Source of the DNA: Escherichia coli
GTDB taxonomy: Bacteria; Pseudomonadota; Gammaproteobacteria; Enterobacterales; Enterobacteriaceae
DNA: 64,000 bases
Direction: 5' to 3' (one strand)
NCBI RefSeq assembly: GCF_048403405.1
Contig: NZ_CP183136.1
Shown: piece after piece, positions 1 through 50,665 of the stretch
Numbering within the stretch: the stretch's first letter is position 1
Layout: each line of letters opens with the position of its first letter
Notes under the pieces: model-generated
Databases searched by the model: none
What the model was told of the DNA's origin: nothing
The model's input: only the letters and a program-made list of their open reading frames with translations
Made by a program: the position numbers and the translations under genes

Positions 1-17
1 CACCACGAGGCATCCCT

Positions 18-230
18 ATGTCTAGTCCACATCAGGATAGCCTCTTACCGCGCTTTGCGCAAGGAGAAGAAGGCCATGAAACTACCACGAAGTTCCCTTG
101 TCTGGTGTGTGTTGATCGTGTGTCTCACACTGTTGATATTCACTTATCTGACACGAAAATCGCTGTGCGAGATTCGTTACAGAGACGGACACAGGGAGGT
201 GGCGGCTTTCATGGCTTACGAATCCGGTAA
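18..230 (+). CDS. mok: Mok, overlapping frame required for hok translation
   Basis: 70-aa ORF that overlaps hok in another frame and ends just inside hok, as in hok/mok/sok loci. Confidence 0.55.
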
Positions 231-234
231 GTAG
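76..234 (+). CDS. hok: Hok-family type I toxin (52 aa)
   Basis: Translation [52 protein letters not shown] matches the Hok/FlmA family from recall. Confidence 0.85.
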
Positions 235-240
235 CAACCT

Positions 241-275
241 GGAGGCGGGCGCAGGCCCGCCTTTTCAGGGCTGAT
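241..275 (+). terminator. Rho-independent terminator, hok mRNA 3' end
   Basis: GC hairpin ggcgggcgcaggcccgcc followed by a T-run. Confidence 0.6.
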
Positions 276-599
276 GCTGGTCTGACTGCACTGAAGCGCC
301 TTTATAAAGGGGCTGCTGGTTCGCCGGTGGCCCCTTTCTCCTTGCTGGCATTGTACGGGCATGAACAACCAGACTGCCAGGAAGGCCGTTTCCCTTCGGG
401 AACGGGGATGAACGTGCGCCTGCGGCGCCCGTTCTTTTCCCCCGCCTTCTCTGTTTATGACTTACCAGAAATCACATCACCTTCCCTTTGATTATTCTCT
501 TTTTCTTCCTGCTCTGACTCTGACTACTGCTGCCCTGATTGTCCTGTCTGCCTGGTCGTACCTTCGGCTCCTAGCTGCCTGGCGGTATCCGGGCGTCAG

Positions 600-1128
600 G
601 CCCGACTCCGGCGGGGCGGGCTGCTGGCGCAACGGCCAGTCCAGCGAAGCTGTCTGCGCCCTGGTTTCGGGCTGTTGCCACGGTCCGCTGACGCAAAAAC
701 CCGGGTTTGCAGCGACCGGACCGGTCGCGCCGCCCTCTGTCGCGCCGTGGCCTGCGCTCCCGGCATCCCGGCAAAAGGCGCCGGGATGTAAGGCGCAACG
801 CCGTTTCGCGAACCGCGCTTCACGTCGTTGCGGCGGGTCCCTGCCCGTTGTTGTGTCCGGTGCCATTCACCTGTTTAAGCCCCTGTCGCCGGGGGCATAG
901 ACAGCCACAACCTGCCGCACTGACTGTCCAGGGTAAATGAACAGCCCACAAAATTTTTTACCCAAAACCCGGTAAAAACTTTTGCGGTCTGCCCAGGACA
1001 GGTGCGTTTCCGGCCGTGGCAGTGATGCCCCTTGCGGCGAAGGTTCTCAAACAGGTGATGGTGAATACCGGAGGGAACAAAAGGCAGGTCCCCGCAAAAC
1101 GTCAAAACCGCGGCTCCCGAAACTCAAC
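600..1128 (+). repeat. Frpo-like leading-region repeat, copy A
   Basis: About 530 bp of GC-rich sequence near-identical to 58066..58603 and 61376..61908, with internal inverted repeats; ends about 40 bp before the next gene. Confidence 0.7.
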
Positions 1129-1168
1129 AGATGATGGGGGCTGAAAACCAGATAGAGGAGGAAGCAGG

Positions 1169-1372
1169 ATGAGTACCCGAAATATCCACGTTAACACCGC
1201 GTCGTACACGCTATCTTGTTGCCGGGAAGAGAAAAACACAACCGGGGAAGAGTGGGACGTCCTGGAATTCAGGCAGATCCTGCACATCAGAGCTGACAAG
1301 ATATCGCAAAAGCCACCCGGAAAGGATGGCTCTATCAGGTCAATAATGAGCTACGCGACTCAGTCAGGGTAG
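1169..1372 (+). CDS. Hypothetical leading-region protein (67 aa)
   Basis: ORF directly after Frpo copy A with upstream gaggagg RBS; no recognisable family. Confidence 0.4.
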   Translation: MSTRNIHVNTASYTLSCCREEKNTTGEEWDVLEFRQILHIRADKISQKPPGKDGSIRSIMSYATQSG

Positions 1373-1612
1373 CCTGGATAAGCAGTACTCCGCCATATCA
1401 GAAACATTGCGGATGAGCCGATCGCTTCAAACAGTTCCTGCGTCAGATTCAAGCGTGCCGGCCTCGATATCCGGGCGATCTGCTGACCGGATGTGATGAA
1501 TACTCCCTCCTCGGAATTGTTGTCAATCTTGTTAATGGTAGATCGAGGGGGGATGATATTAAGCGGAAAAATTTTTTATTAAATTTATTCTTTCATAAAG
1601 GAGTTAGCTGTT

Positions 1613-2435
1613 ATGCGATTAGCTTCCCGTTTTGGTCGGTATAATTCCATCCGCCGTGAACGTCCTTTAACGGATGATGAATTAATGCAGTTCGTGCCTT
1701 CGGTATTTTCCGGTGATAAACATGAGTCCCGGAGTGAACGTTATACGTATATTCCAACAATCAATATCATCAATAAGTTACGTGATGAAGGTTTCCAGCC
1801 ATTCTTTGCCTGTCAGAGTCGGATTCGTGATTTGGGACGTCGCGAATACAGTAAACATATGTTACGTCTTCGCAGGGAAGGGCATATTAACGGGACAGGA
1901 AGTTCCTGAAATTATCCTGCTTAATTCACATGATGGTTCATCCAGTTATCAGATGATCCCCGGAATTTTTCGTTTTGTCTGCACAAATGGCCTGGTGTGT
2001 GGAAATAATTTTGGCGAAATCCGCGTTCCACATAAAGGTGATATTGTCGGGCAGGTTATCGAGGGAGCGTATGAAGTGCTCGGTGTCTTTGATAAGGTCA
2101 CTGATAATATGGAGGCGATGAAAGAAATTCATCTTAACAGTGACGAGCAACATTTATTTGGCAGAGCTGCACTGATGGTCAGGTATGAAGATGAAAATAA
2201 AACGCCAGTGACACCTGAACAGATAATTACTCCCCGTCGTCGGGAAGACAAACAGAACGATCTCTGGACAACCTGGCAGCGGGTTCAGGAGAATATGATA
2301 AAAGGTGGATTATCGGGGCGAAGTGCCTCCGGGAAAAATACCAGGACAAGAGCCATTACAGGTATTGATGGTGATATAAGAATCAACAAGGCGTTATGGG
2401 TGATTGCCGAACAGTTCAGAAAGTGGAAGTCATGA
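1613..2435 (+). pseudogene. yubP: Leading-region DUF932-like protein (orf273/yubP), frameshifted
   Basis: ORFs 1613..1909 and 1713..2435 are in different frames and together span 823 nt, one base more than 273 codons plus stop; break near 1870. Confidence 0.6.
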
Positions 2436-2440
2436 TAATA

Positions 2441-2480
2441 TAAGTAAAGCCCCGAAAAAATTTTCGGGGCTTTACTTATA
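2441..2480 (+). terminator. Rho-independent terminator after yubP
   Basis: Hairpin aaagccccgaaaa/ttttcggggcttt. Confidence 0.6.
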
Positions 2481-2796
2481 TTATCATTTTGCGGCATTGC
2501 TGTGTCGTCTGATATACCTCAATTTCATCAACCGGCTTTCCGGTTGTCTGTAAATATTGTGCCCGCGAAAAATGGTCTGGCAGGAGGCTGCACAGTTACC
2601 GGGTATATATAAGATGGGTTCCCGCTTCGCGGGGCTTCGGCCAGTCAGCATTATCACTCATATGATATTTTTGTGTGTGGCCTTCCATGCCGCTGTCGCG
2701 GCATAACCGGTATTTGACAATGTCTATAAGATTAATTGTTCTGCACACTGTTAATTTGCGGAAAGTGATTTCTTCGTGGTCGGAAGCCGGATGCCT

Positions 2797-3243
2797 TTAC
2801 TGCTTTTTATCCCAGGTATAAATCCGGTAAACCTCTGATGCGTAGGCAAGACGTCTCTGGTTCTGGCGTTCGGTCTTCCTGAATCCGGCATTGTATGCAC
2901 CAACGGCCTCCCAGGTGACGCCCCATTTTTTAAAGGCTATTGCCAGATAATAAGCACCGGTATAAATGTTCATACAGGGATCTGTTGTCAGATGTTCCGG
3001 CTTAATTCCATAGCGGGCCAGTTCGTTAAAATGCTGGGAATCTACCTGCATCAGTCCGCTGCCATATCCCGTTACCGGATTAATACCGATGGCATTAACC
3101 CGGTAACGGGATTCTTGCCATGATATCGCTCTCAGTAAATCCGGGTCTATTTTGTAATCCCGACCTGCAAGATCAAAGCAATCAGTGGCTTCGCAGATCT
3201 CATTTATAAACATCAGGCAGATTGTTAACATCCATTTTTTCAT
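2797..3243 (-). CDS. Lytic transglycosylase (gene X / orf169)
   Basis: SLT-domain-like sequence ([16 protein letters not shown]...GAYNAG); start [10 protein letters not shown] preceded by gaggtgg RBS; N-terminal signal peptide. Confidence 0.85.
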
Positions 3244-3289
3244 TTTTCCACCTCTGGTGACTTTATCCGTAAATAATTTAACCCACTCC

Positions 3290-3660
3290 ACAAAAAGGCT
3301 CAACAGGTTGGTGGTTCTCACCACCAAAAGCACCACACCCTACGCAAAAACAAGTTTTTGCTGATTTTTCTTTAATATCATAGAGTAGTATATGAAAAAT
3401 TAGTATTGTCTTAACTCTCTTTATGATATTTAAAAAAGCGGTCGTCGACGCAGCTACAGCAACGCGCCGACACCGCTTTGTAGGGGTGGTACTGACTATT
3501 TTTATAAAAAACATTATTTTATATTAGGGGTGCTGCTAGCGGCGCGGTGTGTTTTTTTATAGGATACCGTCTAGGGGCGCTGCTAGCGGTGCGTCCCTGT
3601 TTGCACTATGAATTCTAGTGTTTCGAAATTAACTTTGTTTTATGTTTAAAAAAGGTAATA
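3290..3660 (-). other. oriT: oriT, R100-type; nic on minus strand at about 3334/3335
   Basis: Minus strand reads tttttgcgtagggtgtggtgcttttggtggtgagaaccaccaacctgttgagcc, matching the F/R100 nic region from recall; direct repeats taggggtgctgctagcggcgcg and ctaggggcgctgctagcggtgcg (likely TraM sites) upstream of traM. Confidence 0.8.
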
Positions 3661-3664
3661 TCTA

Positions 3665-4048
3665 ATGGCTAAGGTGAATCTGTATATCAGCAATGATGCT
3701 TATGAAAAAATAAACGCGATTATTGAAAAACGTCGACAGGAAGGGGCAAGAGAAAAAGATGTCAGTTTTTCAGCAACGGCTTCAATGCTTCTTGAACTGG
3801 GTCTTCGTGTATATGAGGCTCAGATGGAGCGCAAAGAGTCTGCATTTAATCAGGCCGAGTTTAATAAACTACTTCTTGAATGCGTTGTAAAAACACAGTC
3901 ATCAGTAGCGAAAATTTTGGGTATTGAGTCTCTCAGTCCTCATGTCTCAGGAAATCCAAAGTTTGAATATGCCAATATGGTTGAAGATATCAGAGAGAAG
4001 GTGTCGGCTGAGATGGAAAGGTTCTTTCCAAAAAATGATGATGAATAA
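3665..4048 (+). CDS. traM: TraM, relaxosome accessory protein
   Basis: 127-aa ORF MAKVNLYISNDAYEKINAIIEKRRQEG..., first gene after oriT. Confidence 0.9.
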   Translation: MAKVNLYISNDAYEKINAIIEKRRQEGAREKDVSFSATASMLLELGLRVYEAQMERKESAFNQAEFNKLLLECVVKTQSSVAKILGIESLSPHVSGNPKFEYANMVEDIREKVSAEMERFFPKNDDE

Positions 4049-4164
4049 AGGGAAATAAATTTTGACTTTGTTCAAATATCAGACTTTTTAATGGTTCAAA
4101 CTGATGACAATAATCGAGAGATAATTAGTATATTAATTACGTGGTTAATGCCACGTTAAAATTT

Positions 4165-4245
4165 GAACTTGAAAATCGCCGATGCAGGGAGCTTGTCCCT
4201 CCCTGCATCGACTGTCCATAGAATCCTTTGTGAGGAGGTTCCTAT
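4165..4245 (-). ncRNA. finP: FinP antisense RNA (approximate bounds)
   Basis: Perfect stem-loop cgatgcagggag-cttgtc-ctccctgcatcg at 4180..4210 in the traJ leader, plus a second hairpin over the traJ RBS and start; bounds inferred. Confidence 0.5.
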
Positions 4246-4938
4246 GTATCCGATGGATCGTATTCAACAAAAACATGCTCGTCAAATCAGATCTGCTGGA
4301 AAATCTGACGGCAGTTATTCAGGATTATCCAAATCCAGCCTGTATCAGGGACGAAACTGGAAAATTTATTTTTTGCAATACGCTGTTTCATGAGTCATTT
4401 CTTACACATAGATCAAAGTGCTGAAAAATGGCTTCTGTCGCAGAGAGATTTTTGTGAATTGATCTCTGTCACAGAGATGGAAGCATACAGGAATGAGCAT
4501 ACGCATCTTAATCTTGTAGAGGATGTTTTTATTCAGAACAGATTCTGGACAATATCTGTCCAGTCATTTCTTAATGGACACAGAAATATTATTACTGGTG
4601 GCAATTTTATGATGCTGCTCATGTTCGTCATAAAGACAGTTATAATCAAAAAACGATTGTCAGTGATGATATCAGAAATATAATCAGAAGAATGAGTGAT
4701 GATTCTTCTGTATCATCATATGTAAATGATGTCTTTTACTTATATAGCACCGGAATCAGTCATAATGCTATAGCAAGAATATTAAATATATCCATCTCCA
4801 CATCAAAGATAACACGCATCTCTGATATGCGACTACTTCTCTGTTTCTAATAAAGATGAGTTAATTATCTTACTCTACAATAAAAAGTTTATTTATTATT
4901 TATACGAGAAGGCTATGTGTATCATAAATACGCGTTAA
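4244..4938 (+). pseudogene. traJ: TraJ transfer activator, multiply frameshifted
   Basis: ORFs 4163..4393, 4182..4424 and 4390..4683 in three frames carry consecutive TraJ-like segments (MYPMDRIQQKHARQI / DLLENLTAVIQDYPNPACIRDETGKF / DQSAEKWLLSQRDFCELISVTEMEAYRNEH). Confidence 0.7.
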
Positions 4939-5030
4939 TAAGGTGTTGATAAAATATAGACTTTCCGTCTATTTACCTTTTCTGATTATTCTGTAAACAT
5001 AAGTGGTAACCAGAAGATAAACAGCGGGAG

Positions 5031-5441
5031 GTGTTATTGAAAAGATTTGGTACACGTTCTGCAACAGGTAAGATGGTAAAACTAAAATTACCTGTAGATG
5101 TGGAAAGTCTATTAATTGAGGCAAGTAACAGAAGCGGAAGAAGTCGATCGTTTGAGGCAGTAATAAGACTTAAAGATCATCTTCACCGCTATCCAAAGTT
5201 TAACAGGGCAGGGAATATCTATGGTAAGTCGCTGGTTAAGTATCTGACAATGCGTCTGGATGATGAAACTAACCAGCTACTTACTTGCAGCCAAAAATCG
5301 TAGTGGATGGTGTAAAACAGATGAGGCATGCAGACAGAGTTATTGATCATTTGATCAAGTTATCCTGATTTTTATAACTCGGAGAAATATTCAGGGAGGC
5401 AGATAGAAGAGGAACGATATCAACATTTAAATACACTCTAG
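5031..5441 (+). pseudogene. traY: TraY (ribbon-helix-helix), apparent frameshift at the 3' end
   Basis: GTG-start ORF MLLKRFGTRSATGKMVKLKLPVDVESLLIEASNRSGRSRSFEAVIRL stops at 5303 while TraY-like coding continues in another frame. Confidence 0.6.
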
Positions 5442-5477
5442 TTTTATTCATTTATCCGTATTAATTAGAGGTAATCT

Positions 5478-5849
5478 TATGAATGCTGTTTTAAGTGTTC
5501 AGGGTGCTTCTGCGCCCGTCGAAAAGAAGTCGTTTTTTTCTAAATTCACTCGTCTGAATATGCTTCGCCTGGCTCGCGCAGTGATCCCGGCTGCTGTTCT
5601 GATGATGTTCTTCCCTGCAGCTGGCGATGGCCGCTGGCAGCAATGGTCACGGACCTGATGGCTAAGCGGTCAGGACCACGGTTAAGGCGACCTTCGGTAA
5701 GGACTCCAGTATCGTTAAATGGGTTGTTCTGGCTGAAGTTCTGGTCGGTGCAGTCATGTACATGATGACCAAAAACGTCAAGTTCCTGGTCGGCTTTGCC
5801 ATACATCTCTGTATTTATTGCTGTGGGTATGGCCGTCGTTGGCTTCTGA
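5478..5849 (+). pseudogene. traA: TraA propilin, frameshifted
   Basis: MNAVLSVQGASAPVEKKSFFSKFTRLNMLRLARAVIPAAVLMMFFP then a frame break; pilin C-terminus ([34 protein letters not shown]) continues in other frames into ORF 5756.. Confidence 0.65.
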
Positions 5850-21287: not shown

Positions 21288-22660
21288 ACCTCTTCTGGTT
21301 CTTTGTGCTGCTTTACTGACGGTCACACCCGCAGCGTCAGCGGATGTGAACAGCGACATGAATCAGTTCTTTAACAAGCTGGGCTTCGCCTCCAATACCA
21401 CCCAGCCGGGCGTCTGGCAGGGGCAGGCCGCCGGCTATGCTTACGGTGGCTCCCTGTATGCCCGTACTCAGGTTAAAAATGTTCATCTGATTTCCATGAC
21501 GCTGCCGGATATCAATGCCGGATGTGGCGGCATCGACGCCTATCTCGGCTCGTTCAGCTTTATTAATAGCGAGCAGTTGCAGCGTTTTGTTAAGCAGATT
21601 ATGAGCAATGCTGCCGGTTACTTCTTTGACCTTGCCCTGCAGACAACGGTGCCGGAAATCAAAACCGCAAAAGACTTCCTGCAGAAAATGGCAAGCGACA
21701 TTAACAGTATGAACCTCAGTTCCTGCCAGGCGGCACAGGGGATTATCGGCGGGCTTTTCCCCCGGACGCAGGTGTCCCAGCAGAAAGTCTGTCAGGACAT
21801 TGCCGGTGAGAGCAATATTTTTGCTGACTGGGCTGCTTCCCGGCAGGGATGTACCGTTGGCGGGAAATCTCGACAGCGTCAGGGATAAAGCCAGCGACAA
21901 GGATAAGGAGCGGGTGACCGAAAAACATCAACATCATGTGGAATGCGCTTTCCAAAAACAGAATGTTTGACGGCAACAAAGAGCTGAAAGAGTTTGTGAT
22001 GACGCTGACCGGCTCACTGGTGTTTGGTCCCAGACGGCGAAATCACACCGCTATCGGCGCAGAACCACTGACCGCTCATATTATCCGGGCCATGATGGAA
22101 GGCGGTACAGCAAAAATTTATCACTGCAACGATTCTGACAAATGCCTGAAAGTGGTGGCAGACACACCGGTGACCATCAGCCCGGGATAATGCACTGAAG
22201 TCTCAGATTACTAAACTTCTGGCCAGCATTCAGAACAAGGCTGTCAGTGACACGCCTCTGGATGACAAGGAAAAAGGCTTTATTTCCAGTACCACCATCC
22301 CCGTCTTCAAATACCTGGTTGACCCGCAGATGCTCGGTGTTTCCAACAGTATGATTTACCAGCTGACGGACTATATCGGTTACGACATCCTGCTGCAGTA
22401 CATTCAGGAGCTGATACAGCAGGCCCGGGCGATGGTGGCCACCGGGAAATTATCGACGAAGCAGTTATCGAACAGTATTAACTGGACAATATGAATGATG
22501 CCACCGCGGCAGATTGCGGCGTTTCCAGTCACAGGTACAGGTGCAGCAGGATGCGCTGCTGGTCGTCGACCGTCAGATGAGCTACATGCGTCAGCAGCTT
22601 TCCGCCCGCATGCTCAGTCGTTACCAGAACAACTATCACTTCGGAGGGAGCACGCTGTGA
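21271..22660 (+). pseudogene. traH: TraH, frameshifted
   Basis: N-terminal 205 aa in ORF 21271..21888; later TraH-like segments (MWNALSKNRMFDGNKELKEF..., NDSDKCLKVVADTPVTIS) lie in other frames; total span is not a multiple of 3. Confidence 0.7.
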
Positions 22661-25348
22661 ATGAAGTTTATGTGATTGCCGGTGGTGAATGGTTGCGGAA
22701 TAACCTGAACGCCATTGCCGCCTTTATGGGAACCAGGACGTGGGATTCCATTGAAAAAATTGCTCTCACCCTGTCTGTTGTTGCGGTGGCCTTTATGTGG
22801 GTACAGCGGCACAACGTGATGGATTTGCTGGGCTGGGCGGCGGTGTTTGTGCTTATCAGCCTGCTGGTTAATATCCGTACGTCGGTGCAGATTATTGATA
22901 ACAGTGACCTGGTCAAAGTCCATCGGGTGGATAATGTGCCGGTCGGACTGGCGATGCCACTTTCACTGACGACCCGTATCGGGCATGCAATGGTGGCCAG
23001 TTACGAGATGATCTACACGCAACCGGACAGTTTCACCTACAGCAAAACGGGGATGCTGTTTGGCGCAGAACCTGGTATGCAAAAAGCACCGACTTTTTGT
23101 CCCGCAATCCGGAAATCGCCAATCTTTTTCAGGATTATGTGCAGAACTGTGTGATGGGGGATATTTACCTGAACCACAAATACACGCTGGAGGAGCTGAT
23201 GGCCTCCGCTGATCCCTACACGCTGATTTTTTCCCGCCCCAGTCCGCTGCGGGGCGTTTATGACAGCAATAATAATTTCGTGACCTGTAAGGACGCGTCG
23301 GTTTCGCTGAAAGACAAGCTGAATCTGGACACACAGACGTGGCGGCAAAACCTGGCATTATTATGTGCAGCAGATATTTGGCGGTCAGCCCGGATCCGGA
23401 CCTGTTATTCAGTGCAACTGGTTGAGTGACAGTTACCGTTATTTCTACGGCTCCAGCCAGTCTGCCAGTCAGATCATGCGCCAGAACGTCACCATGAATG
23501 CGCTGAAGGAGGGTATCACCAGTTATGCAGCCCGTAACGGTGACTACCGCCAGCCTGGTGAATCTGGCCACCACGTCATCGATGGAGAAGCAACGTCTGG
23601 CACATGTCTCCATTGGTCATGTGGCTGATGCGAAACACTGCCGATGGCGCAGACCATTCTGGTGGGCATTACCATCGGTATTTTCCCGCTCCTGGTACTG
23701 GCGGCTGTCTTCAACAAACTGACGCTGTCTGTTCTGAGAGGCTATGTGTTTGCCCTGATGTGGTTGCAGTCATGGCCAATGTTGTATGCCATTCTGAACA
23801 GCGCCATGACATTTTATGCGAAGCAGAATGGTGCACCGGTGGTGCTCTCGGAAATTTCACAGATACAGCTGAAATACTCCGATCTGGCTTCCACTGCCGG
23901 GTATCTTTCCATGATGATACCCGCCATTATCCTGGATGATGGTCAGAGGCCTTGGCGCCGGTTTTTCCAGCGTGTACAGCCATTTCGCTTCCTCTGCTAT
24001 CAGCCCGACTGCCAGTGCGGCAGGCAGTGTGGTTGACGGTAATTACTCCTACGGCAACATGCAGACGGAAAACGTGAACGGCTTCAGCTGGAGCACCAAC
24101 AGCACCACGTCGTTTGGTCAGATGATGTACCAGACCGGCAGTGGCGCAACTGCCACACAGACCCGTGACGGTAATATGGTGATGGATGCAAGCGGAGCGA
24201 TGTCCCGTTTACCGGTTGGTATCAATGCAACGCGTCAGATTGCAGCGGCACAACAGGAAATGGCCCGGGAGGCGTCGAACAGAGCAGAAAGCGCCCTGCA
24301 TGGTTTCAGCAGCAGTATTGCCAGTGCCTGGAACACGCTCAGTCAGTTTGGTTCTAACCGGGGGAGCAGTGATTCTGTCACCGGTGGCGCTGACAGCACC
24401 ATGAGTGCACAGGACTCCATGATGGCCAGCCGTATGCGCAGTGCAGTGGAAAGCTATGCGAAGGCGCATAATATCAGTAATGAGCAGGCGACTCAGGAAC
24501 TGGCATCAACAGGTTCTAGGTTCTCGTCTGGCGGAATGTATGCAGATGCTCATGCTGAATGGGGGATTAAACCTGAAATTCTTGGTGTTGGTGGTGGGGT
24601 TGGTGTCAGAGGCGGGTTTAAGGGAAGTCTTGGATGCGAACGGATGATGACTCACATTCTGCAAGTAGTGGCAGCAGAGCTACCCATGATGCTCGCCATG
24701 ATATTGACGCTAAAGCCAGTACAGGACTTTAAAGAAGCCAGCGATTACTTTACCAGTCGCAAGGTCAGTGAGTCCGGCAGCCATACTGACAATAATGCTG
24801 ACTCCCGGGTGGACCAGTTGTCTGCAGCCCTGAACTCAGCGAAACAGAGTTACGACCAATACACGACGAATATGACCCGCAGCCATGAATATGCGGAAAT
24901 GGCCTCCCGTACTGAAAGCATGAGCGGGCAGATGAGTGAAGACCTGTCGCAACAGTTTGCACAGTATGTGATGAAACGCGCACCGCAGGATGCAGAAGCT
25001 ATTCTGACAAATACCAGTTCGCCGGAGATTGCAGAACGTCGTCGGGCGATGGCATGGTCTTTTGTGCAGGAACAGGTACAGCCTGGTGTTGATAATGCCT
25101 GGCGGGAATCCCGTGGCGATATTGGTAAAGGAATGGAGAGCGTACCTTCGGGTGGTGGCAGTCAGGATATTATTGCTGACCATCAGGGACATCAGGCCAT
25201 TATTGAGCAAAGAACGCAGAACAGTAATATCCGTAATGATGTAAAACATCAGGTTGATAATATGGTCACAGAATATCGTGGCAATATCGGAGATACTCAG
25301 AACAGTATCCGTGGCGAGGAAAATATTGTAAGACGGGCAGTATTCTGA
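22657..25348 (+). pseudogene. traG: TraG, mating-pair stabilisation / entry exclusion, multiply frameshifted
   Basis: Starts at GTG (VNEVYVIAGGEWLRNNLNAIAAF); successive segments in ORFs 22495..23154, 23097..23429, 23365..23628, 23644..24036 and 23936..25348 in different frames. Confidence 0.7.
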
Positions 25349-25502
25349 ACTGCAAAATCATCATAAAACAGGAGGCATTATCTACAGAATAATAAATATA
25401 ATGAAGAGCAAGAAACGTCAGAAGATTAATACCTGACGCCATCAGAAGAGGCTGTGAAAACAGATGGTGGATGATAAGAAGGATACGACTGAAGGGGCCA
25501 TT

Positions 25503-25911
25503 ATGATCACTCACTATGATATAAAAACGGAGACACAGAAACTAAAGGATGTACTCTCTGTAGAGGGAGTTAATATTCCGCCATTATTACAAGTCATAAA
25601 GCCAGGGAACTGTATGTGTTTTTATGGGTTTTATTATGGCCAACTTTTCTGCGTTTAGCTATCAGTTAAAAGTTGATGTCCGGGATGCTGGCTTTGATAT
25701 ATGTGCTAGTGGCATGATGGGGTTCCTCCTTTTTGTGGCCATTACAAATGGAATGATGTTATACCTTGCGATTCCTGATAGTTTCAGAAATGAGTCGAAA
25801 ATAATAACTTTTATGTATGATAAGAACAAAACTTATATCTTGTCGTTTGTGATTGTTTTTTCTATGGTTTCCTTTGCTGCATACGTATCTTATTTGGGTT
25901 TTTGCATCTAA
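25503..25911 (+). pseudogene. traS: TraS-like entry exclusion protein, possible frameshift
   Basis: Hydrophobic ORFs 25464..25658 and 25624..25911 in two frames between traG and traT; identification by position only. Confidence 0.4.
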
Positions 25912-26036
25912 TGATTACTATTCGTAATTATTTCTCTTGGTGTATACCATAGATATAAATCGTTATAATCTCTCTGCAATAGTCTCAGTAATAGGTCTGT
26001 TCAAAAAAGAGTCTGTTAGTTAAAAGGATATTCTGG

Positions 26037-26768
26037 ATGAAAACAAAAAAATTGATGATGGTTGCACTGGTCAGTTCCACTCTGGCCCTTTCAGGGTGTG
26101 GTGCGATGAGCACAGCAATCAAGAAGCGTAACCTTGAGGTGAAGACTCAGATGAGTGAGACCATCTGGCTTAAACCCGCCAGCGAACGCACGGTATTTCT
26201 GCAGATCAAAAACACGTCTGATAAAGACATGAGTGGGCTGCAGGGCAAAATTGCTGATGCTGTGAAAGCAAAAGGATATCAGGTGGTGACTTCTCCGGAT
26301 GCAGCCTACTACTGGATTCAGGCGAATGTGCTGAAGGCCGATAAGATGGATCTGCGGGAGTCTCAGGGATGGCTGAACCGTGGTTATGAAGGCGCAGCTG
26401 TTGGTGCAGCGTTAGGTGCCGGTATTACCGGCTATAACTCAAATTCTGCCGGTGCCACACTCGGTGTAGGCCTTGCTGCTGGTCTGGTGGGTATGGCTGC
26501 AGATGCGATGGTGGAAGATGTGAACTATACCATGATCACGGATGTGCAGATTGCAGAGCGTACTAAGGCAACGGTGACAACGGATAATGTTGCCGCCCTG
26601 CGTCAGGGCACATCAGGTGCGAAAATTCAGACCAGTACTGAAACAGGTAACCAGCATAAATACCAGACCCGTGTGGTCTCAAATGCGAACAAGGTTAACC
26701 TGAAATTTGAAGAGGCGAAGCCTGTTCTCGAAGACCAGCTGGCCAAATCAATCGCAAATATTCTCTGA
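26037..26768 (+). CDS. traT: TraT, surface exclusion / serum-resistance lipoprotein
   Basis: 243 aa, lipobox LALSGC, matches TraT from recall. Confidence 0.9.
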
Positions 26769-27032
26769 TTATCTTCCGGAGGCTGGTCTGACCGGCCTCC
26801 TGACTGACGCCTCGCTTTGCTCGTTGTCCAACCCCGGAAAGAAATAAAATAAATTTTATTTCTCCCCGGCGTTTCCGAAATAAATATGAAAACACTGAGC
26901 GGTTGTGCAAATTCTTTGTGCGACCGTGAAGTGTTGCCGGCGAAGCCCGGAATTCTGAACGTGATTATTGAATCTTATTGCGATACGATGTGAATAATCA
27001 GTCCGACTGACTTTTTTCTTCGGAATATCATC

Positions 27033-29367
27033 ATGAGTTTTAACGCAAAGGATATGACCCAGGGCGGTCAGATTGCGTCCATGCGTATCCGCATGTTCAG
27101 CCAGATCGCCAATATCATGCTTTACTGCCTGTTTATTTTTTTCTGGATACTCGTTGGTCTGGTTTTATGGGTAAAAATAAGCTGGCAGACGTTTGTGAAC
27201 GGCTGTATTTACTGGTGGTGTACCACGCTGGAAGGCATGCGGGATTTAATCAAGTCCCAGCCGGTATATGAGATCCAGTATTACGGCAAAACCTTCCGGA
27301 TGAACGCTGCTCAGGTACTGCATGATAAATATATGATTTGGTGCGGAGAGCAGCTATGGTCCGCATTCGTTCTGGCCACAGTTGTGGCACTGGTTATTTG
27401 CCTGATTACCTTCTTTGTTGTCTCCTGGATTCTGGGGCGTCAGGGTAAACAACAGAGCGAAAATGAAGTCACAGGTGGTCGTCAGCTGACAGACAATCCG
27501 AAAGACGTTGCCCGGATGCTGAAAAAAGACGGCAAGGACTCCGATATCCGGATTGGCGACCTGCCGATTATCCGGGATTCCGAAATCCAGAACTTCTGTC
27601 TGCACGGCACGGTCGGGGCCGGTAAGTCGGAGGTTATCCGTCGTCTGGCCAACTACGCCCGTCAGCGCGGTGATATGGTGGTGATTTATGACCGTTCAGG
27701 GGAATTTGTTAAAAGTTACTATGATCCCTCCATCGATAAAATCCTGAATCCGCTGGATGCCCGCTGTGCCGCATGGGATTTGTGGAAGGAGTGCCTGACA
27801 CAGCCGGATTTTGATAATACCGCAAATACTCTGATCCCGATGGGTACAAAAGAGGACCCGTTCTGGCAGGGTTCAGGACGTACCATTTTTGCGGAAGCGG
27901 CGTACCTGATGCGTAATGACCCCAACCGCAGCTACAGCAAACTGGTGGACACACTGCTTTCCATCAAAATCGAAAAACTGCGTACCTTCCTGCGTAATTC
28001 ACCGGCGGCCAACCTGGTGGAAGAGAAAATCGAGAAAACGGCGATTTCCATCCGTGCTGTGCTGACCAACTACGTGAAAGCCATCCGTTACCTGCAGGGG
28101 ATTGAGCATAACGGTGAGCCCTTCACCATCCGTGACTGGATGCGTGGTGTCCGGGAAGATCAGAAAAACGGCTGGCTGTTTATCTCATCGAACGCCGACA
28201 CCCATGCCTCCCTGAAGCCGGTGATCTCCATGTGGCTGTCCATTGCCATTCGTGGTCTGCTGGCAATGGGAGAAAACCGTAAACGTCGTGTGTGGTTTTT
28301 CTGTGACGAGTTACCCACGTTACACAAACTGCCGGATCTGGTGGAGATCCTGCCGGAAGCCCGTAAGTTCGGTGGCTGTTATGTGTTTGGTATCCAGTCC
28401 TATGCCCAGCTGGAAGATATCTACGGTGAGAAAGCGGCGGCCACGCTGTTTGACGTCATGAACACCCGTGCTTTTTTCCGTTCTCCCGAGCCATAAGATT
28501 GCAGAGTTCGCTGCCGGTGAGATTGGTGAGAAAGAGCACCTGAAAGCCAGCGAGCAGTATTCCTACGGTGCTGATCCGGTACGTGACGGGGTATCGACCG
28601 GTAAGGATATGGAGCGTCAGACGCTGGTCAGTTATTCCGACATTCAGTCTCTGCCGGATCTGACCTGCTATGTCACTCTGCCCGGACCGTATCCGGCAGT
28701 AAAACTCTCTCTGAAATATCAGGCACGACCGAAGGTCGCTCCGGAGTTTATTCCGCGTGACATCAACCCGGAAATGGAGAACCGTCTGAGTGCCGTACTT
28801 GCCGCAAGGGAAGCAGAAGGTCGTCAGATGGCCAGCCTCTTCGAACCGGAGGTTGCCTCCGGAGAAGATGTGACTCAGGCTGAACAGCCACAACAGCCAC
28901 AACAGCCACAACAGCCACAACAGCCACAACAGTCACAACAGCCACAACAGCCACAACAGCCACAACAGCCACAACAGCCACAACAGCCACAACAGCCACA
29001 ACAGCCACAACAGCCACAACAGCCACAACAGCCACAACAGCCACAACAGCCACAACAGCCACAACAGCCACAACAGCCACAACAGCCAGTGTCTCCTGCC
29101 ATCAACGATAAGAAGTCAGATGCAGGTGTGAGTGTTCCGGCAGGGGGGATCGAGCAGGAGCTGAAAATGAAACCGGAAGAAGAGATGGAACAGCAACTGC
29201 CACCCGGGATCAGTGAATCCGGTGAAGTGGTGGATATGGCCGCTTATGAGGCATGGCAACAGGAAAATCATCCGGACACCCAGCAGCAGATGCAGCGTCG
29301 TGAAGAGGTGAACATTAATGTGCACCGGGAGCGCGGGGAGGATGTTGAGCCGGGAGATGATTTCTGA
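27033..29367 (+). pseudogene. traD: TraD coupling protein, one frameshift near 28480
   Basis: ORF 27033..28496 (Walker A GTVGAGKS) and ORF 28468..29367 (continuing ...[23 protein letters not shown]) are adjacent TraD segments in different frames; contains the QQP repeat. Confidence 0.75.
28885..29086 (+). repeat. 9-bp tandem repeat (cagccacaa), about 22 units, encoding the TraD C-terminal QQP tract
   Basis: Directly visible periodicity, with one variant unit cagtcacaa. Confidence 0.9.
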
Positions 29368-32300
29368 TGTTGAGTTTCAGCGTTGGTTAAATCGGCAGGC
29401 AGTGCCGGAAACTATTACACCGACAAGGATAATTACTATGTGCTGGGCAGCATGGGAGAACGCTGGGCTGGTCAGGGGGGCTGAACAGCTTGGGACTGCA
29501 GGGCAGCGTCGATAAGGATGTTTTTACCCGTCTTCTGGAGGGCAGGCTGCCGGACGGAGCGGATTTAAGCCGCATGCAGGATGGCAGTAATAAGCATCGT
29601 CCCGGCTACGACCTGACCTTCTCCGCCCCCAAAAGTGTCTCCATGATGGCCATGCTCGGGGGCGATAAACGCCTGATTGATGCACATAACCAGGCCGTGG
29701 ATTTTGCTGTCCGTCAGGTGGAGGCGCTGGCTTCCACACGGGTGATGACGGACGGACAGTCAGAAACGGTGCTGACCGGTAATCTGGTGATGGCACTGTT
29801 TAACCATGACACCAGTCGCGATCAGGACCCACAGTTACACACGCATGTAGTGGTGGCTAATGTCACGCAGCATAACGGCGAGTGGAAGACACTGAGCAGT
29901 GACAAAGTGGGGAAAACCGGATTTATCCGAGAACGTGCTACGCGAACCGGATTGCGTTCGGGAAGATCTATCAGAGTGAGTTACTGTCAGCGCAGGTTGA
30001 GGCGCTGGGTTATGAAACCGAAGTGGTCGGTAAGCACGGTATGTGGGAGATGCCGGGCGTACCGGTGGAGGCCTTTTCCAGTCGTTCACAGGCTATCAGG
30101 GAGGCCGTCGGTGAAGACGCCTCGCTGAAATCCCGGGATGTGGCGGCACTGGATACGCGAAAATCCAAACAGCACGTCGATCCGGAAATCAGAATGGCTG
30201 AATGGATGCAGACGCTGAAGGAAACCGGGTTCGACATCCGGGCATATCGTGACGCGGCGGATCAGCGTGCGGAGACCCGCACGCAGGCGCCCGGGGCTGT
30301 TTCACAGGAGGGGCCGGATGTGCAGCAGGCGGTGACACAGGCCATTGCCGGATTAAGTGAACGAAAAGTGCAGTTTACGTACACGGACGTGCTGGCCAGA
30401 ACGGTCGGTATACTGCCGCCGGAAAATGGTGTGATTGAACGGGCACGCGCCGGTATCGATGAGGCCATCAGTCGTGAGCAGCTTATCCCCCTCGACCGTG
30501 AGAAGGGGCTGTTCACATCAGGAATTCATGTGCTCGATGAGCTGTCCGTCCGGGCACTCAGTCGTGACATCATGAAACAGAACCGGGTGACCGTACATCC
30601 GGAGAAAAGTGTCCCCCGGACGGCTGGTTACAGCGATGCGGTCAGTGTTCTGGCACAGGACCGTCCGTCGCTGGCCATTGTGTCCGGGCAGGGCGGTGCA
30701 GCCGGGCAGCGTGAGCGGGTGGCTGAACTGGTCATGATGGCCCGGGAGCAGGGGCGGGAGGTGCAGATTATCGCTGCTGACCGTCGCTCGCAGATGAACC
30801 TGAAGCAGGATGAACGGCTGTCCGGTGAGCTGATAACCGGACGTCGTCAGCTGCAGGAGGGCATGGTCTTCACGCCGGGCAGTACTGTTATCGTCGACCA
30901 GGGCGAAAAACTCTCCCTGAAAGAGACGTTAACCCTGCTGGACGGTGCCGCACGTCATAACGTACAGGTCCTGATAACCGACAGCGGGCAGCGAACCGGT
31001 ACAGGCAGTGCGCTGATGGCCATGAAGGATGCCGGGGTGAACACGTATCGCTGGCAGGGCGGAGAACAGCGACCGGCAACCATCATCAGTGAACCGGACC
31101 GGAATGTCCGCTATGACCGGCTGGCCGGAGATTTTGCGGCCAGCGTGAAAGCCGGAGAAGAGAGCGTGGCACAGGTCAGCGGGGTACGGGAACAGGCCAT
31201 ACTGACACAGGCCATTCGCAGTGAGCTGAAAACACAGGGCGTGCTCGGACACCCGGAGGTGACCATGACCGCCCTGTCACCGGTCTGGCTGGACAGCCGG
31301 AGCCGTTATCTGCGGGATATGTACCGACCGGGGATGGTGATGGAGCAGTGGAACCCGGAGACACGCAGTCATGACCGCTATGTTATCGACCGGGTGACGG
31401 CGCAGAGTCACAGCCTGACCCTGCGGGATGCGCAGGGCGAAACGCAGGTGGTGCGTATTTCCTCCCTGGACAGCAGCTGGTCGCTGTTCCGGCCGGAAAA
31501 AATGCCGGTGGCAGACGGCGAGCGACTGAGGGTGACAGGGAAAATTCCCGGACTCCGCGTCTCCGGCGGTGACCGCCTGCAGGTGGCATCCGTCAGTGAA
31601 GATGCGATGACGGTTGTTGTGCCGGGGCGGGCTGAACCGGCCACCCTGCCTGTGGCTGATTCACCGTTCACGGCACTGAAGCTGGAGAACGGCTGGGTGG
31701 AAACGCCCGGGCATTCCGTCAGTGACAGTGCGACGGTGTTTGCCTCCGTCACACAGATGGCAATGGACAACGCCACCCTGAACGGTCTGGCCCGCAGCGG
31801 TCGTGATGTCCGGCTGTATTCCTCACTGGATGAAACCCGTACTGCGGAAAAACTTGCCCGCCATCCCTCCTTTACGGTGGTTTCTGAGCAGATAAAGGCG
31901 CGGGCCGGTGAGACATCGCTGGAAACCGCTATCAGTCTGCAGAAAACCGGGCTGCACACGCCGGCACAGCAGGCCATTCATCTGGCCCTTCCTGTGCTGG
32001 AAAGTAAAAACCTGGCCTTCAGCATGGTGGACCTGCTGACAGAGGCGAAGTCGTTTGCTGCAGAAGGAACCGGTTTTACTGAACTGGGAGGGGAAATCAA
32101 TGCGCAGATAAAACGCGGTGACTTACTGTATGTGGATGTGGCAAAAGGCTATGGCACAGGCCTGCTGGTTTCTCGTGCGTCGTATGAGGCAGAAAAAAGT
32201 ATTCTTCGCCATATTCTCGAAGGTAAGGAGGCGGTCACGCCGCTGATGGAGAGAGTACCCGGCGAACTCATGGAGACGTTAACGTCGGGACAGCGTGCCG

Positions 32301-37025: not shown

Positions 37026-37577
37026 AATAAGGCTTCTCTGAAACCTTCTTCCATACCCGGCAGAAGAAGGTTATAAAAATTTATAACACATTCACCGGCC
37101 TGGATTAAAGGGGGAAGGAAAATGAACGGAACAGGGCGTGATTCGCAAAACTCCGGGGTATGGCGCTACCGGCAGGTCGGACGCCGGGCTGTCCGGCTGG
37201 AAGTCAGGGGGACTGGCCGGGAGCCGCTGAGGCATGGCTACGGGCTGCGCAGTCTGCTCCCCGGACAGACTGGCAGCAGTTTGCCCGAAAAAGGGCTGAA
37301 CACTGCCACCGGCGCTGCCGGGGAAGGGTGTAACGAAAAAGCAGCCTTCATTACTCCAGGGATTCAGAAGGCTGAATAATGCATGAGATTTGCTTTTTTT
37401 AATATCCGGTCGGAAAGTATGACCGGACAGTTCTGAGTAGCACAGAGTTTTTTCCATATTAAGTCGTGATTTTATATTTTGTGATTAATTTCACAAAATA
37501 AGGTGTTATTCAGTGTGTGCTGCGATATTCAGGATTACCTGAAATACAGGTGCCATTTATCTGATATGGAGAATAAC

Positions 37578-39469: not shown

Positions 39470-39570
39470 TTTAAGGAATTTTGTGGCTGGCCACGCCGTA
39501 AGGTGGCAGGGAACTGGTTCTGATGTGGATTTACAGGAGCCAGAAAAGTGAAAACCCCGATAATCTTCAG
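39470..39570 (-). ncRNA. copA: CopA antisense RNA (approximate)
   Basis: Position between copB and tap/repA1 in a RepFII replicon; bounds not resolved. Confidence 0.4.
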
Positions 39571-39654
39571 CAAGTTTGGCGACTAAGAAGAAGATTAACG
39601 GGGCTAACAAGAAACCGCATAGAAGCTGTTGCTCTATGCGGGGAGTATAGTTAT

Positions 39655-41430: not shown

Positions 41431-41645
41431 CATATGTTGGTGGCTGTGTCTGAAAGGTTATATACTCTGCATAAAACCTGACAACACGCAGATTGCCAGG
41501 CAAATGAGCATTATGCATCCGGTTATCGCCTGCCTGTGAAACAATATCACCGGGGCGAATATCGATACTCTGACTCGTTATACCCATGCGTGCGGCATCA
41601 AAAAACCTGCAATTGCCCTTTATTGAATGAAAGGGGGAGTCAATT

Positions 41646-41909
41646 ATGAATAGCACCACACATTACGAAAACGCCAATTTCCTGCGCGAGCTGGCCGAAA
41701 GCCTGCCTCGTATTTTTCCAGAAGGCAGTACAGACAAGTCTGCACTATTGCAACGCCTCGCTAATGAAGAACTGGCACGGGCGGAATACGACGAACAGAT
41801 CCGAGCGAAAGTTGCCGCTGCCCGCGCCGATAAGCGGCCGGGAATGAGTTCCGCGCAACTGCGCCAGCAACTACAGGGACGTTATCAGGAACTGCGCAAT
41901 GAGTTATGA
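41646..41909 (+). CDS. yacA: Antitoxin (YacA-like)
   Basis: 87-aa ORF overlapping the toxin start. Confidence 0.65.
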   Translation: MNSTTHYENANFLRELAESLPRIFPEGSTDKSALLQRLANEELARAEYDEQIRAKVAAARADKRPGMSSAQLRQQLQGRYQELRNEL

Positions 41910-42198
41910 AATAGAATGGCGACCAGGTGCGATTGAGGATATAACGGCGTTGTTTGAATATCTGGTCGAGAATGCATCTCTTTGGGATGCAAGGAACGTG
42001 ACAGAGCGTCTGATCACTGCAACCGATCGCCTGGCTGATTACCCCAGGCTGTATGAAACGGATGAACGCTATGGTGAAGGGGTTCGCCGTATTAGCTTAC
42101 TTGGACAGCATGTACTTTATGAAGTGAATGATGAGGCCAGTCGTGTCAATATCCTGGCGGTTGTAGGCCAGCGTCAGAATCCCCGATTCATTCTTTGA
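41899..42198 (+). CDS. yacB: RelE/ParE-family toxin (YacB-like)
   Basis: 99-aa ORF overlapping the antitoxin stop; RelE/ParE-like size and C-terminus. Confidence 0.7.
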   Translation: MSYEIEWRPGAIEDITALFEYLVENASLWDARNVTERLITATDRLADYPRLYETDERYGEGVRRISLLGQHVLYEVNDEASRVNILAVVGQRQNPRFIL

Positions 42199-42233
42199 GT
42201 GTCCGGCTTGGAACTCCATCTTCAGAGAATCGA

Positions 42234-42899
42234 TCAACGTTCTTTAGCTCCTTCCACTAACAGCCGACCTATCTCAAACACCGCAGCTGACCGTCCCGAC
42301 TTCACCGCTTCGGCTTTCTGTCCCTCAACAAACCAGTTATTACCGTCCGTTCGGACCAACTCAAACATCCATGACATATCGTAAACGTGTTCCGGGATCA
42401 GCGACCCTTCTCCGGCCAGAATACCCGCCGTTATGGAGTGGTTGCCCCCGTGCACAAAGCCAATACGCCAGGGCAACCACAGGTCAACATAGTGGTTGTT
42501 TTTATCTTGCTTCCACGGCTTCCCCTTATGGGTTCCAATGCGTGAAACGTTATCGATATAGCGTGGTAGGCTCCAAGGCCACGGCAGCACTATGTCGCTT
42601 GCCAGCGACAACGGATAATCAGCGCCGTTCATCTCACACTCTTTCATCTTTTCGTAAGATTGTATTTGGGTAAGTCCCTTAAAGAAGAACTCCTGCGGGG
42701 TCATATCCGGGCGGGCATCTGTTCCCTCCTCAGCTACCGCCAGCAAGAAATCACTCTGTACTGGCCGCACGATAGCGCGAATGAGATCTGGTAGCGCCTT
42801 AACGGGTAGTTTCTCTGCCACAGAAAGCAGATGATTGAAGCGTTTTTTTTCATTGGCTATAGTTGCTTTATCTTTCTTGTTTCGGTTCCAGAACATCAC
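42234..42899 (-). CDS. Hypothetical protein (221 aa)
   Basis: Long ORF; no family recognised. Confidence 0.5.
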   Translation of the reverse strand: MMFWNRNKKDKATIANEKKRFNHLLSVAEKLPVKALPDLIRAIVRPVQSDFLLAVAEEGTDARPDMTPQEFFFKGLTQIQSYEKMKECEMNGADYPLSLASDIVLPWPWSLPRYIDNVSRIGTHKGKPWKQDKNNHYVDLWLPWRIGFVHGGNHSITAGILAGEGSLIPEHVYDMSWMFELVRTDGNNWFVEGQKAEAVKSGRSAAVFEIGRLLVEGAKER

Positions 42900-43468
42900 T
42901 GTCTGTAGCCCTCCTTATCGTGATCAGGATGATGGTTTTCATTCTAATGGTGTAGTAGTTTCACGTCACGCGCACGTGCATATTCTTCGAAAGCTTCGGC
43001 GTTAGCCGGTCAACCAGGGGGTTGAGGCCCAACCGTACGAGATCGTACGCTAAGTTCATTTTTTGAGCAGAAGAGGTGAGTAAAGAAAACGAGGGTTTTG
43101 TTTACTCTTCCCGTCAATGCCAGTAGCCATGCGGTTTCAGGGACTTTCAGTGTTAATAAACTCGGTAATCAAATCAACGTAAACCTGCCTAACAACGCCA
43201 CGACTTTATTGACTTAAAATCATATAGTTAGCTTCTTAGCGTACGTTTCCGCTCCATTGGGCTTCAAACCCCACACCCAATGACATGAGAAAAGCTGGAT
43301 CTGATTCTCAAAATGCTGGGATACCCATCGAGATGGAGAACTCAGTCAATGTTCCATTCTTTCTGAAATATGTGTGGGGACACTGATCTGTCGGGAGCCG
43401 GATGCGGTAGTTCCGCAGGTCCGGTTCTGAGGAGGGGCCCGTCCGGGCAACCGGCGGGTCTACTCACC

Positions 43469-44032
43469 TCATCCCCCTACAACCACTCCCATTCGTTTAA
43501 GTATTTTTAAACCTGCTTCCTGTGGTATCTTTATAGATAAGATCCTGTTTATCTCAGGATTTATATCGAGACCTTCTGTCATTGAAAAATCACAGTGAGA
43601 CAAATCAGAATGTCTGAACTCTGTATTATTAAACTCCGAACCAGTAAAATCAGATTTACGAAGGTCTGTTTCCTCAAATAAACAATCACGGAAGCGACTG
43701 GATAAAAAAATAGATTTCTGTAACCGTAAACTAATAAAATCAACAAATCTCAAATCACAATTTACAAGAGAAAAAGTACAGGGAAACATAATGTCTGCTG
43801 CATTTACTCCTTGTAATAAACAATCTTTGAATTCACAGTCAATAAGTTTAAAAAAATTAAGTTTTAAATTCTTTATTGAGCAGTTTACGAAGCGACATTT
43901 TTCGAACTCACAATCGCGAAAGTTAAAGTTGTCAAGCTGTATTCGTTCAAATATACAATTGTAATAATTTACACCTGATAATTCACTTTCACTGAGGTGT
44001 CGTTTTGTGATTCTTTTTTCTATTATATCCAT
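43469..44032 (-). CDS. mcbG: McbG, pentapeptide-repeat microcin B17 immunity protein
   Basis: 187 aa with pentapeptide repeats; last gene of the mcb operon. Confidence 0.85.
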   Translation of the reverse strand: MDIIEKRITKRHLSESELSGVNYYNCIFERIQLDNFNFRDCEFEKCRFVNCSIKNLKLNFFKLIDCEFKDCLLQGVNAADIMFPCTFSLVNCDLRFVDFISLRLQKSIFLSSRFRDCLFEETDLRKSDFTGSEFNNTEFRHSDLSHCDFSMTEGLDINPEINRILSIKIPQEAGLKILKRMGVVVGG

Positions 44033-44035
44033 GTG

Positions 44036-44767
44036 TCAGTCTCCTGTTCCCATAACTTCTTTAATAAATGCCTTTTCTGGAGTTGTTTCATTATTGGATT
44101 GAATAAAATCACTCATATCAGAATAACGATTTATACTATTTTTTGAAAGCATATAGAAGGGGATTTTATCTCTTGTTAATTCATCAAAAATATGAGTTGA
44201 GAAAAATACAGTTTTCCCGTCAGCGGTGATCTTATTTATCAGTTCCCATAACATCATTCTGTACTGAATATCAATGCCTACAGTTGGTTCATCCAGTAAA
44301 AATAAACGGGCATTTTTGCAAAGCGTTAGCATCAAAGATATGATAAGCCAACGCTTCTCTCCATAACTTACCGTGTAAGTCCTTTTACGTCTTATTTTAT
44401 CATAGCGAATGAAAAAATTATCATTCCATTTATGATTAAGCTCTGTCCATGCCTGTTTTTTAGTTAACTTATTGAAGCAGCAAATCAAATCAAGAACCTC
44501 CTCATTCCTTAGTGTACCTGAAAGATTTATGACTTGAGGTAGACTTACTAATTCTCCATCAGAGAAATTTCGCTTGAGGGTCCCTTCATAATTACTGACT
44601 CCGCCCCTGATAAGGTTAAAAAGAGTGGTCTTCCCGGCTCCATTTTCTCCAAGCAGACCTATCAACTCTCCCTGCTCAATCTTAAGCGACAGATTATTGA
44701 AAACAGGGGGTAAATTTACTTTATATGAAAAGCTCAGAGAGTTGATTTCTAAAAGAGGTATGGTCAT
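44036..44767 (-). CDS. mcbF: McbF, ABC transporter ATP-binding subunit
   Basis: Walker A GENGAGKTT, ABC signature. Confidence 0.85.
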   Translation of the reverse strand: MTIPLLEINSLSFSYKVNLPPVFNNLSLKIEQGELIGLLGENGAGKTTLFNLIRGGVSNYEGTLKRNFSDGELVSLPQVINLSGTLRNEEVLDLICCFNKLTKKQAWTELNHKWNDNFFIRYDKIRRKRTYTVSYGEKRWLIISLMLTLCKNARLFLLDEPTVGIDIQYRMMLWELINKITADGKTVFFSTHIFDELTRDKIPFYMLSKNSINRYSDMSDFIQSNNETTPEKAFIKEVMGTGD

Positions 44768-45489
44768 TGAGAACTCCAGACTGGCTCAGTTTTGAAGGTT
44801 AGTGCTGAAATAATACTTATGATTAACATTATACTATAGAAAAATATCGTCATCAGAGACAACTCCTGATCTGACTGGAGTATTGTAGAATAGATGGCGA
44901 TAGGATTAACCTGATTTATCCAGTAAACGATCCCCTCATTATATTTTAATGATACAATTCCTGATACCATACAGACAGTTATTAATACAGAATAGATAGT
45001 GCTGGCTGTTTGGAATGTGACTCTGAACGATGCCATGAAAGTGAGTGAAACCATCATAAATGCATTTATGTATATCGATTTTAAAATAATCATTACTATT
45101 TGATAATCTGGACTTGCCTGGAATCCTGTTAGTACGACTAAAATGAAAAAAAACACATACAAAATAGACATGATAAGTGAGGCTATTAATTGAGAACGAA
45201 TAAATAATAGTCGACCATCCATATTATGCACGAAGGTAGCAATAAAACCACTTTCTCTTCTTCCGACCAGATACAGACAGTAATTAAACAGAACAACAGA
45301 AAAAGAAATGTAGCCTACAAACCATGATATTTGTTTTCCGAGCCATGCTGTATCACCATAATGAAGTTCAATTTCATTGAAATGAAGGAAAAAGAACAAC
45401 ACTGTAGGTGACATAATTGTCCATATTAAGCTGAAAGGGGTTCTGATTTGTTCCATCAGAAAAATTATCGCCATTTTTAATGTAACCAT
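44764..45489 (-). CDS. mcbE: McbE, ABC transporter permease
   Basis: 241-aa polytopic membrane protein. Confidence 0.8.
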   Translation of the reverse strand: MVTLKMAIIFLMEQIRTPFSLIWTIMSPTVLFFFLHFNEIELHYGDTAWLGKQISWFVGYISFSVVLFNYCLYLVGRRESGFIATFVHNMDGRLLFIRSQLIASLIMSILYVFFFILVVLTGFQASPDYQIVMIILKSIYINAFMMVSLTFMASFRVTFQTASTIYSVLITVCMVSGIVSLKYNEGIVYWINQVNPIAIYSTILQSDQELSLMTIFFYSIMLIISIISALTFKTEPVWSSQ

Positions 45490-45498
45490 TTGTTATCC

Positions 45499-47488: not shown

Positions 47489-47489
47489 G

Positions 47490-48277: not shown

Positions 48278-48286
48278 AAATGTAGG

Positions 48287-50661: not shown

Positions 50662-50665
50662 AAAA

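Follow-up and report, generated by a model that had tools for sequence, protein, structure and literature searches.

The window, a stretch of 64,000 nucleotides, opens with two overlapping plus-strand open reading frames in different frames, hok and mok, and with part of the antisense RNA gene sok (Table 1). The hok product matched the Pfam family HOK_GEF (PF01848; E = 1.2e-21, 76.5 bits against a cut-off of 22), and the mok product matched PF17496 (DUF5431; E = 2.6e-41); the RefSeq name for an identical mok ORF is "plasmid maintenance protein Mok". Nucleotides 1-300 showed 100% identity to the hok/sok (parB) locus of plasmid R100 (NC_002134.1, 47292-47591), and a comparison with the plasmid collection revealed identity in many F-type plasmids as well, with 2,565 plasmid records at 99% identity or above. 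The sequence-only reading had proposed a hok/mok toxin module at the window start with both genes complete, and the R100 identity, the two Pfam matches and the full lengths of the ORFs agree with it on each point. In the public RefSeq annotation of the identical sequence, Hok is given as a protein of 41 aa with its start codon at an internal GTG (window 109; 109-234), whereas the Hok protein that has been studied is the 52-aa product of the upstream ATG; older plasmid annotations often omit mok.

Table 1. Features of the hok/mok/sok locus and small-RNA matches elsewhere in the window
Feature	Window positions	Strand	Details
Sok RNA, 5' 27 of 64 nt	1-27	-	11-nt single-stranded recognition tail (27->17) and start of the stem
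mok Shine-Dalgarno sequence (SD), GAGG	7-10	+	hok mRNA +105 to +108; 7 nt before the mok AUG
Sok target hairpin (sokT)	7-44	+	Rfam RF01794 structure line; MFE fold of window 1-300
mok ORF	18-230	+	ATG (AUG at 18-20), 70 aa + stop; overlaps hok in another frame
sok promoter (predicted)	34-62	-	-35 TTGCGC (62->57), 17-nt spacer, -10 TATCCT (39->34); start 7 nt downstream of -10
hok ORF	76-234	+	ATG (AUG at 76-78), 52 aa + stop, MKLPRSS...YESGK; membrane toxin
3' stem-loop of the processed (truncated, translatable) hok mRNA	241-263	+	G345 = window 247, C358 = window 260
fbi (fold-back inhibition) element	290-300	+	3' end of the 398-nt full-length hok mRNA; partner tac (+1 to +10) off window
Hairpin followed by UUUCUCCUU (candidate terminator)	306-337	+	14-bp stem, -26.6 kcal/mol (fold of window 296-350); directly past the mRNA 3' end
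traJ 5' UTR/FinP	4139-4250		Rfam gathering-level match
AS-traG	23379-23467		Rfam gathering-level match
AS-traI	32224-32300		Rfam gathering-level match
AS-pc02	37230-37413		Rfam gathering-level match
CopA	39546-39637		Rfam gathering-level match
AS-pc01	58742-58843		Rfam gathering-level match

To place the locus on the numbering used for plasmid R1, we rebuilt the hok mRNA (398 nt in total) by joining window 1-300 to the 98 nt found immediately before the shared segment in R100, with +1 set at L001 2403, so that window 1 corresponds to +99 and subtracting 98 from a hok mRNA position gives the window position. Agreement was complete for the 13 nucleotides to which Le Rhun et al. (PMC9841398) assign a hok mRNA position (G4, C5, T6, G64, A70, G71, C72, G105, A106, T204, G311, G345, and C358). 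On this scale the window lacks the hok promoter, hok mRNA +1 to +98 (containing tac, the metastable hairpin, and ucb) and the last 37 nt of Sok (nt 28-64), while every hok/sok element that lies inside it is unmutated; over window 1-530, the comparison with R100 revealed one mismatch and no indels. The Rfam model of the hok leader (RF01794, sense orientation) aligned window 1-78 to model positions 78-157 of 157 and flagged the match as cut at its 5' end. Its score of 33.6 bits fell below the gathering score of 59 because the part in the window is truncated: R100, identical over the shared part, passed with 88.9 bits over positions 1-157. The earlier view that the window edge cuts the module and leaves the hok mRNA 5' end before position 1 was right; the missing part of the hok side amounts to 98 nt plus the promoter.

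In the sokT hairpin, whose mechanism has been described for the R1 system (PMC9841398 and PMC1635323), the mok SD (7-11) is paired with a downstream complementary box (40-44), and the loop holds the mok AUG and a CUAG (YUNR) motif. The 5' end of Sok could be set from a published antisense agent: the anti-Sok PNA-1 has the sequence TATGTCTAGTC, described as "11 bases complementary to the 5'-tail of Sok-RNA" (PMC1635323), and this string is window 17-27, which places the Sok 5' end at about window 27 on the minus strand. In the fold of a 64-nt Sok rebuilt from R100, a tail of 11 nt was followed by a single long hairpin and a U-rich end.

Transcription of sok would run leftward, antisense to the mok initiation region, from a promoter to the right of the sok body and inside mok. 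This promoter is predicted from its position, its conservation and what is known of the R1 locus. Its spacing agrees with the Sok 5' end set by PNA-1, its hexamers are weak (7/12 against the consensus), and both the promoter and Sok nt 1-27 are identical in R1/R100, whereas Sok nt 28-64, including the terminator hairpin, lie off the window. The sequence-only reading was thus right that sok is cut by the edge and wrong that the gene lies at or before position 1; it had also expected the sok promoter upstream of the window, and its proposed inspection of that region was misplaced, since the predicted promoter (62->34) is inside. A simple consensus promoter/terminator scan made no call for the sok promoter or for the hairpins at 241-263 and 306-337; the calls that it did make all fell inside hok and were regarded as chance.

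Downstream of hok, a G+C-rich hairpin followed by TTTT (241-265) had been taken as a terminator. We instead assign 241-263 to the 3' end structure of the processed mRNA, because it contains the positions of G345 and C358 and because the published stem-loop acts as a "road-block" to 3' trimming during the slow removal of the terminal 39 nt of hok mRNA (PMC1635323). The stem with the C-G pairs required for stability of the truncated mRNA (G345, C358) corresponds to window 243-260, and the full-length mRNA reads through it to about 300. The range of 1-275 given earlier for the module is therefore too short at its right end, where fbi follows. The window fbi is complementary to the R100 tac, in line with the exact "blunt-ended" pairing of the two hok mRNA ends described by Faridani et al. 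(PMC1635323). Folded to its MFE structure, the rebuilt RNA of 398 nt joined +1-7 to +392-398 and +9-10 to +389-390 (tac/fbi), and the mok SD to +72-75 (ucb), matching the published closed full-length form; the tac/fbi pairing was recovered only after the R100 5' flank had been added. Directly past the mRNA end, the strong hairpin at 306-337 may be the actual transcription terminator, possibly a bidirectional one. This candidacy follows from the fold, and we found no literature support for it beyond that.

If the mechanism established for R1 (PMC9841398, PMC4147584, and PMC1635323) applies to this locus, as the shared sequence suggests, a stable hok mRNA would be made in a closed form, with 5' tac paired to 3' fbi and ucb sequestering the mok SD. 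Slow 3' trimming of about 39 nt would halt at the 241-263 stem-loop, and the trimmed mRNA would refold so that the mok SD is placed in the sokT hairpin. Ribosomes would then translate mok and, through coupling to it, hok, and Hok would act at the inner membrane to kill the cell. Sok, an unstable RNA of 64 nt started at about window 27, would counteract this by binding the sokT loop through its 11-nt 5' tail, which would block mok translation and lead to RNase III cleavage. In plasmid-free cells Sok would be lost first, and death would follow. The post-segregational killing role at this locus is accordingly a putative one carried over from R1.

The identity with R100, the 13 of 13 agreeing positions, the Pfam and Rfam matches, the fold, the PNA-1 site and the gene order together lead us to read the window start as a type I toxin-antitoxin locus, the canonical hok/mok/sok (parB) of R1/R100 type, of which the 3' three-quarters are present. 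We give this assignment, made by sequence comparison, a probability of about 95%, and no observation spoke against it. Small ORFs are common in this DNA (29 of at least 20 aa in the first 1.5 kb) and neighbouring genes carry frameshifts, so that the ORFs could in principle be chance occurrences or a decayed, functionless hok-like remnant. Against this stand 300 nt of complete identity to an experimentally studied locus, the Pfam E-values, and the freedom of positions 1-530 from insertions and substitutions relative to the dozens in the adjacent 0.53-5.8 kb. We rejected the chance or remnant explanation, which is scarcely credible given the Pfam matches, the R100 identity and the agreement with R1 numbering.

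The neighbouring frameshifts belong to two blocks (530-5800 and 21800-29900) with dozens of window-specific single-base insertions that are not homopolymer-linked. Comparison with L002 revealed 57 window-only bases versus 1 L002-only base over 1.4-6 kb, and comparison with L003 revealed 17 versus 0, whereas 6.0-21.8 kb was nearly identical to L002, with one mismatch and no gaps. The insertions break a DUF932 gene, traJ, traH, traG, traD, and traI. These blocks look like assembly or sequencing error rather than natural decay. The 50-mer at window 551-600 had no exact match in genome, viral or metagenome contig collections, and an exact-protein look-up of a frameshift-specific 98-aa product returned no match; no PLSDB record or complete E. 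coli genome exceeded about 95% identity over window 1-1400 or 1-3000.

Compared with known systems, the locus shares hok, mok, the mok SD, sokT, the sok promoter and 5' tail, the 3' stem-loop and fbi with hok/sok (parB) of R1 and R100. There is no difference from R100 in the part present; the leader region that is missing from the window shows single-base differences between R100 and other alleles. A divergent Hok/Gef locus (e.g. that of pJKHS004_3, flm/srnB-like) has the same architecture and the same position after psiA, and its hok promoter/tac and 3' stem-loop/fbi regions are nearly identical to the R1/R100 type. Its antisense promoter (TTGCAA-17 nt-CATACT) sits at the same coordinates as the sok promoter of the window. 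It differs centrally, in the Sok target loop, the antisense promoter bases and the mok/hok coding sequence, and is expected to have a different Sok specificity, whereas the window locus is of the R1/R100 type. The locus itself is already known: among type I toxin-antitoxin systems it is the one studied best, and here it occupies its customary position on an F-type plasmid, a textbook module with little discovery value. The practical value lies in the corrected map, in which the predicted sok promoter and the Sok 5' recognition tail are inside mok, the road-block hairpin is not the mRNA end, and fbi lies beyond it.

By its gene content, the window is most of an IncFII-type, F-like conjugative plasmid of about 66-69 kb with microcin B17 genes. 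After hok come leading-region genes, traM-traJ and the whole tra operon, then finO, IncFII repA with CopA, a RelE/ParE pair, the microcin B17 operon and parMR; the window end is leading region again, with an antirestriction gene, ssb and a ParB-like gene at the very end. In relatives the order is psiB-psiA-hok-...-traM, and a position of hok/sok after psiA in the leading region is the usual arrangement (bioRxiv 10.1101/2025.08.07.668861). Circular relatives have only about 2.2 kb between the window end and start, comprising the rest of the ParB-like gene, psiB, psiA and the 5' part of hok. A look-up of TraM returned only more distant relatives.

What lies to the left of position 1 can be read in two ways, with roughly even odds between them, and either is compatible with the hok/mok/sok assignment since they concern the state of the locus only. 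Plasmid pCRE-015_1 (CP128774.1), 98% identical to window 1-28032, carries a 1,443-bp IS150 (L002 1560-3002; target duplication CCA) that ends exactly at window position 2. We searched PLSDB with three 50-nt probes, counting records at a coverage of at least 80%. The IS150 junction at the window start was found in 288 records, which include most of the best tra-region relatives of the window, and the uninterrupted sequence across the same point in 2,351. A second IS150 site, at about +5 of the hok mRNA between the promoter and tac, was found in 65 records. This second site is independent of the first; it is seen in NZ_CP015086.1 (L005 1110-2552), and its 65 PLSDB carriers are mostly E. coli, one of them O25b:H4.

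One reading, which we hold at a little under an even chance, is that the module is split in the source plasmid by IS150 (or another assembly-breaking repeat) left of window 1-3, between +100 and +101. Were the window start arbitrary, it would lie no more than 2 nt from the junction about once in 10^4, a coincidence that suggests a source contig beginning at a repeat boundary and broken at IS150. The window end in the ParB-like gene fits as well, since with the gap seen in relatives the window would be a contig of the whole plasmid minus a repeat, and so do the want of a close record in the complete-genome and plasmid collections and the assembly-like error blocks. IS150 also hits hok/sok regulatory regions repeatedly, both at the second plasmid site and at chromosomal loci, where such insertions are recurrent in experimental evolution (PMC5419217). 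The allele, however, speaks against a split. All 288 junction records have a different hok 3' UTR allele (A at 270, GC deleted at 288-289), whereas the window has the R100-type allele (G at 270, GC at 288-289), so that a split would need either a separate insertion or recombination over a very short tract. A chimeric 358-nt query joining the IS150 junction to the window allele gave no exact one-piece match, the best being 99.2-99.4%. Moreover, the opening CA is as compatible with the intact sequence as with the IS end, and De Bruijn-graph contigs normally keep k-1 repeat bases, whereas the window keeps at most 2. A wrap-around check within the window found no trace of the 200 nt upstream in R100, no IS150 and no second hok, which is thus single-copy there. 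The window would share its class of event with known IS-interrupted hok loci (IS150 in plasmid leaders and chromosomal regulatory regions) if the source is split at 1-3, but it differs from them in having no IS sequence and an allele unlike those of all the junction plasmids.

The other reading, to which we give an even chance, is that the source has an intact locus and that the edge fell where it did by chance; the 98-nt leader, the hok promoter and the 3' half of sok would then lie directly upstream and complete a working addiction system. The window allele is identical to those of R100, pA16EC0321-2 and pKP121-3, all of them uninterrupted, the uninterrupted form outnumbers the IS150 form in PLSDB, and every element in the window is unmutated. 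An intact locus leaves unexplained why the window start coincides exactly with a recurrent IS150 junction. The two forms differ in the bases left of window 1, which would read ...GTAAGTTAATTTTCATTAAC / ...CCCCGTAGTAAGTTAATTTTCATTAAC in the uninterrupted form and ...TTGGGGTCAGTA / ...CTTTTTGGGGTCAGTA in the IS150-split form.

Were the source split, hok would be left without promoter, tac, and ucb, and transcription from the sok promoter would run on into IS150. On the sok-transcribed strand the element has a terminator-like hairpin 45-80 nt from its edge, and the product would be a chimeric Sok-IS150 RNA that ends there. The module would most likely be disarmed or re-wired, and the plasmid would be without the normal hok/sok addiction. 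Such a case would add evidence for IS150 targeting of hok regulatory regions and be of modest interest for plasmid stability and the reading of draft assemblies. An independent IS150 insertion on the R100-type allele at the same nucleotide as in the 288 plasmids (+100/+101, inside sok) seems to us rather unlikely; if true, it would point to a genuine hot spot for IS150 in the hok/sok leaders of plasmids, repeatedly uncoupling hok from its promoter and fold-back control.

Elsewhere in the window, the region at about 41500-52000 (homology to L007 13550-23217) contains mcbA-G homologues, namely a TOMM precursor, McbB, a SagB-type dehydrogenase, YcaO and immunity genes, together with the RelE/ParE toxin-antitoxin pair and parM/parR. 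In its backbone the window is similar to IncFII plasmids of about 69 kb that carry mcb genes and have another allele at their own hok locus. The six small-RNA matches at the Rfam gathering level (Table 1) form the expected IncFII/F-like complement. Weak Rfam hits at 2364-2529 (PyrG, His leaders, RsmY, mir-1302, ohsC, and others) were set aside as chance matches to one palindromic, terminator-like hairpin. This is a near-perfect 55-nt palindrome (2432-2486) with a G+C core and A/T flanks between convergent DUF932 and SLT-transglycosylase genes, probably a bidirectional terminator, which draws several such spurious hits. The leading region also contains a repeat of about 0.55-0.65 kb in three diverged copies (about 506-1163, 58064-58605, and 61298-61928) with 83-97% identity to the R100 version. 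The copy beside hok is an unusual mosaic, with at most about 94% identity to anything in PLSDB. The three copies may correspond to the single-strand promoter (Frpo/ssi-type) regions of F-like plasmids.
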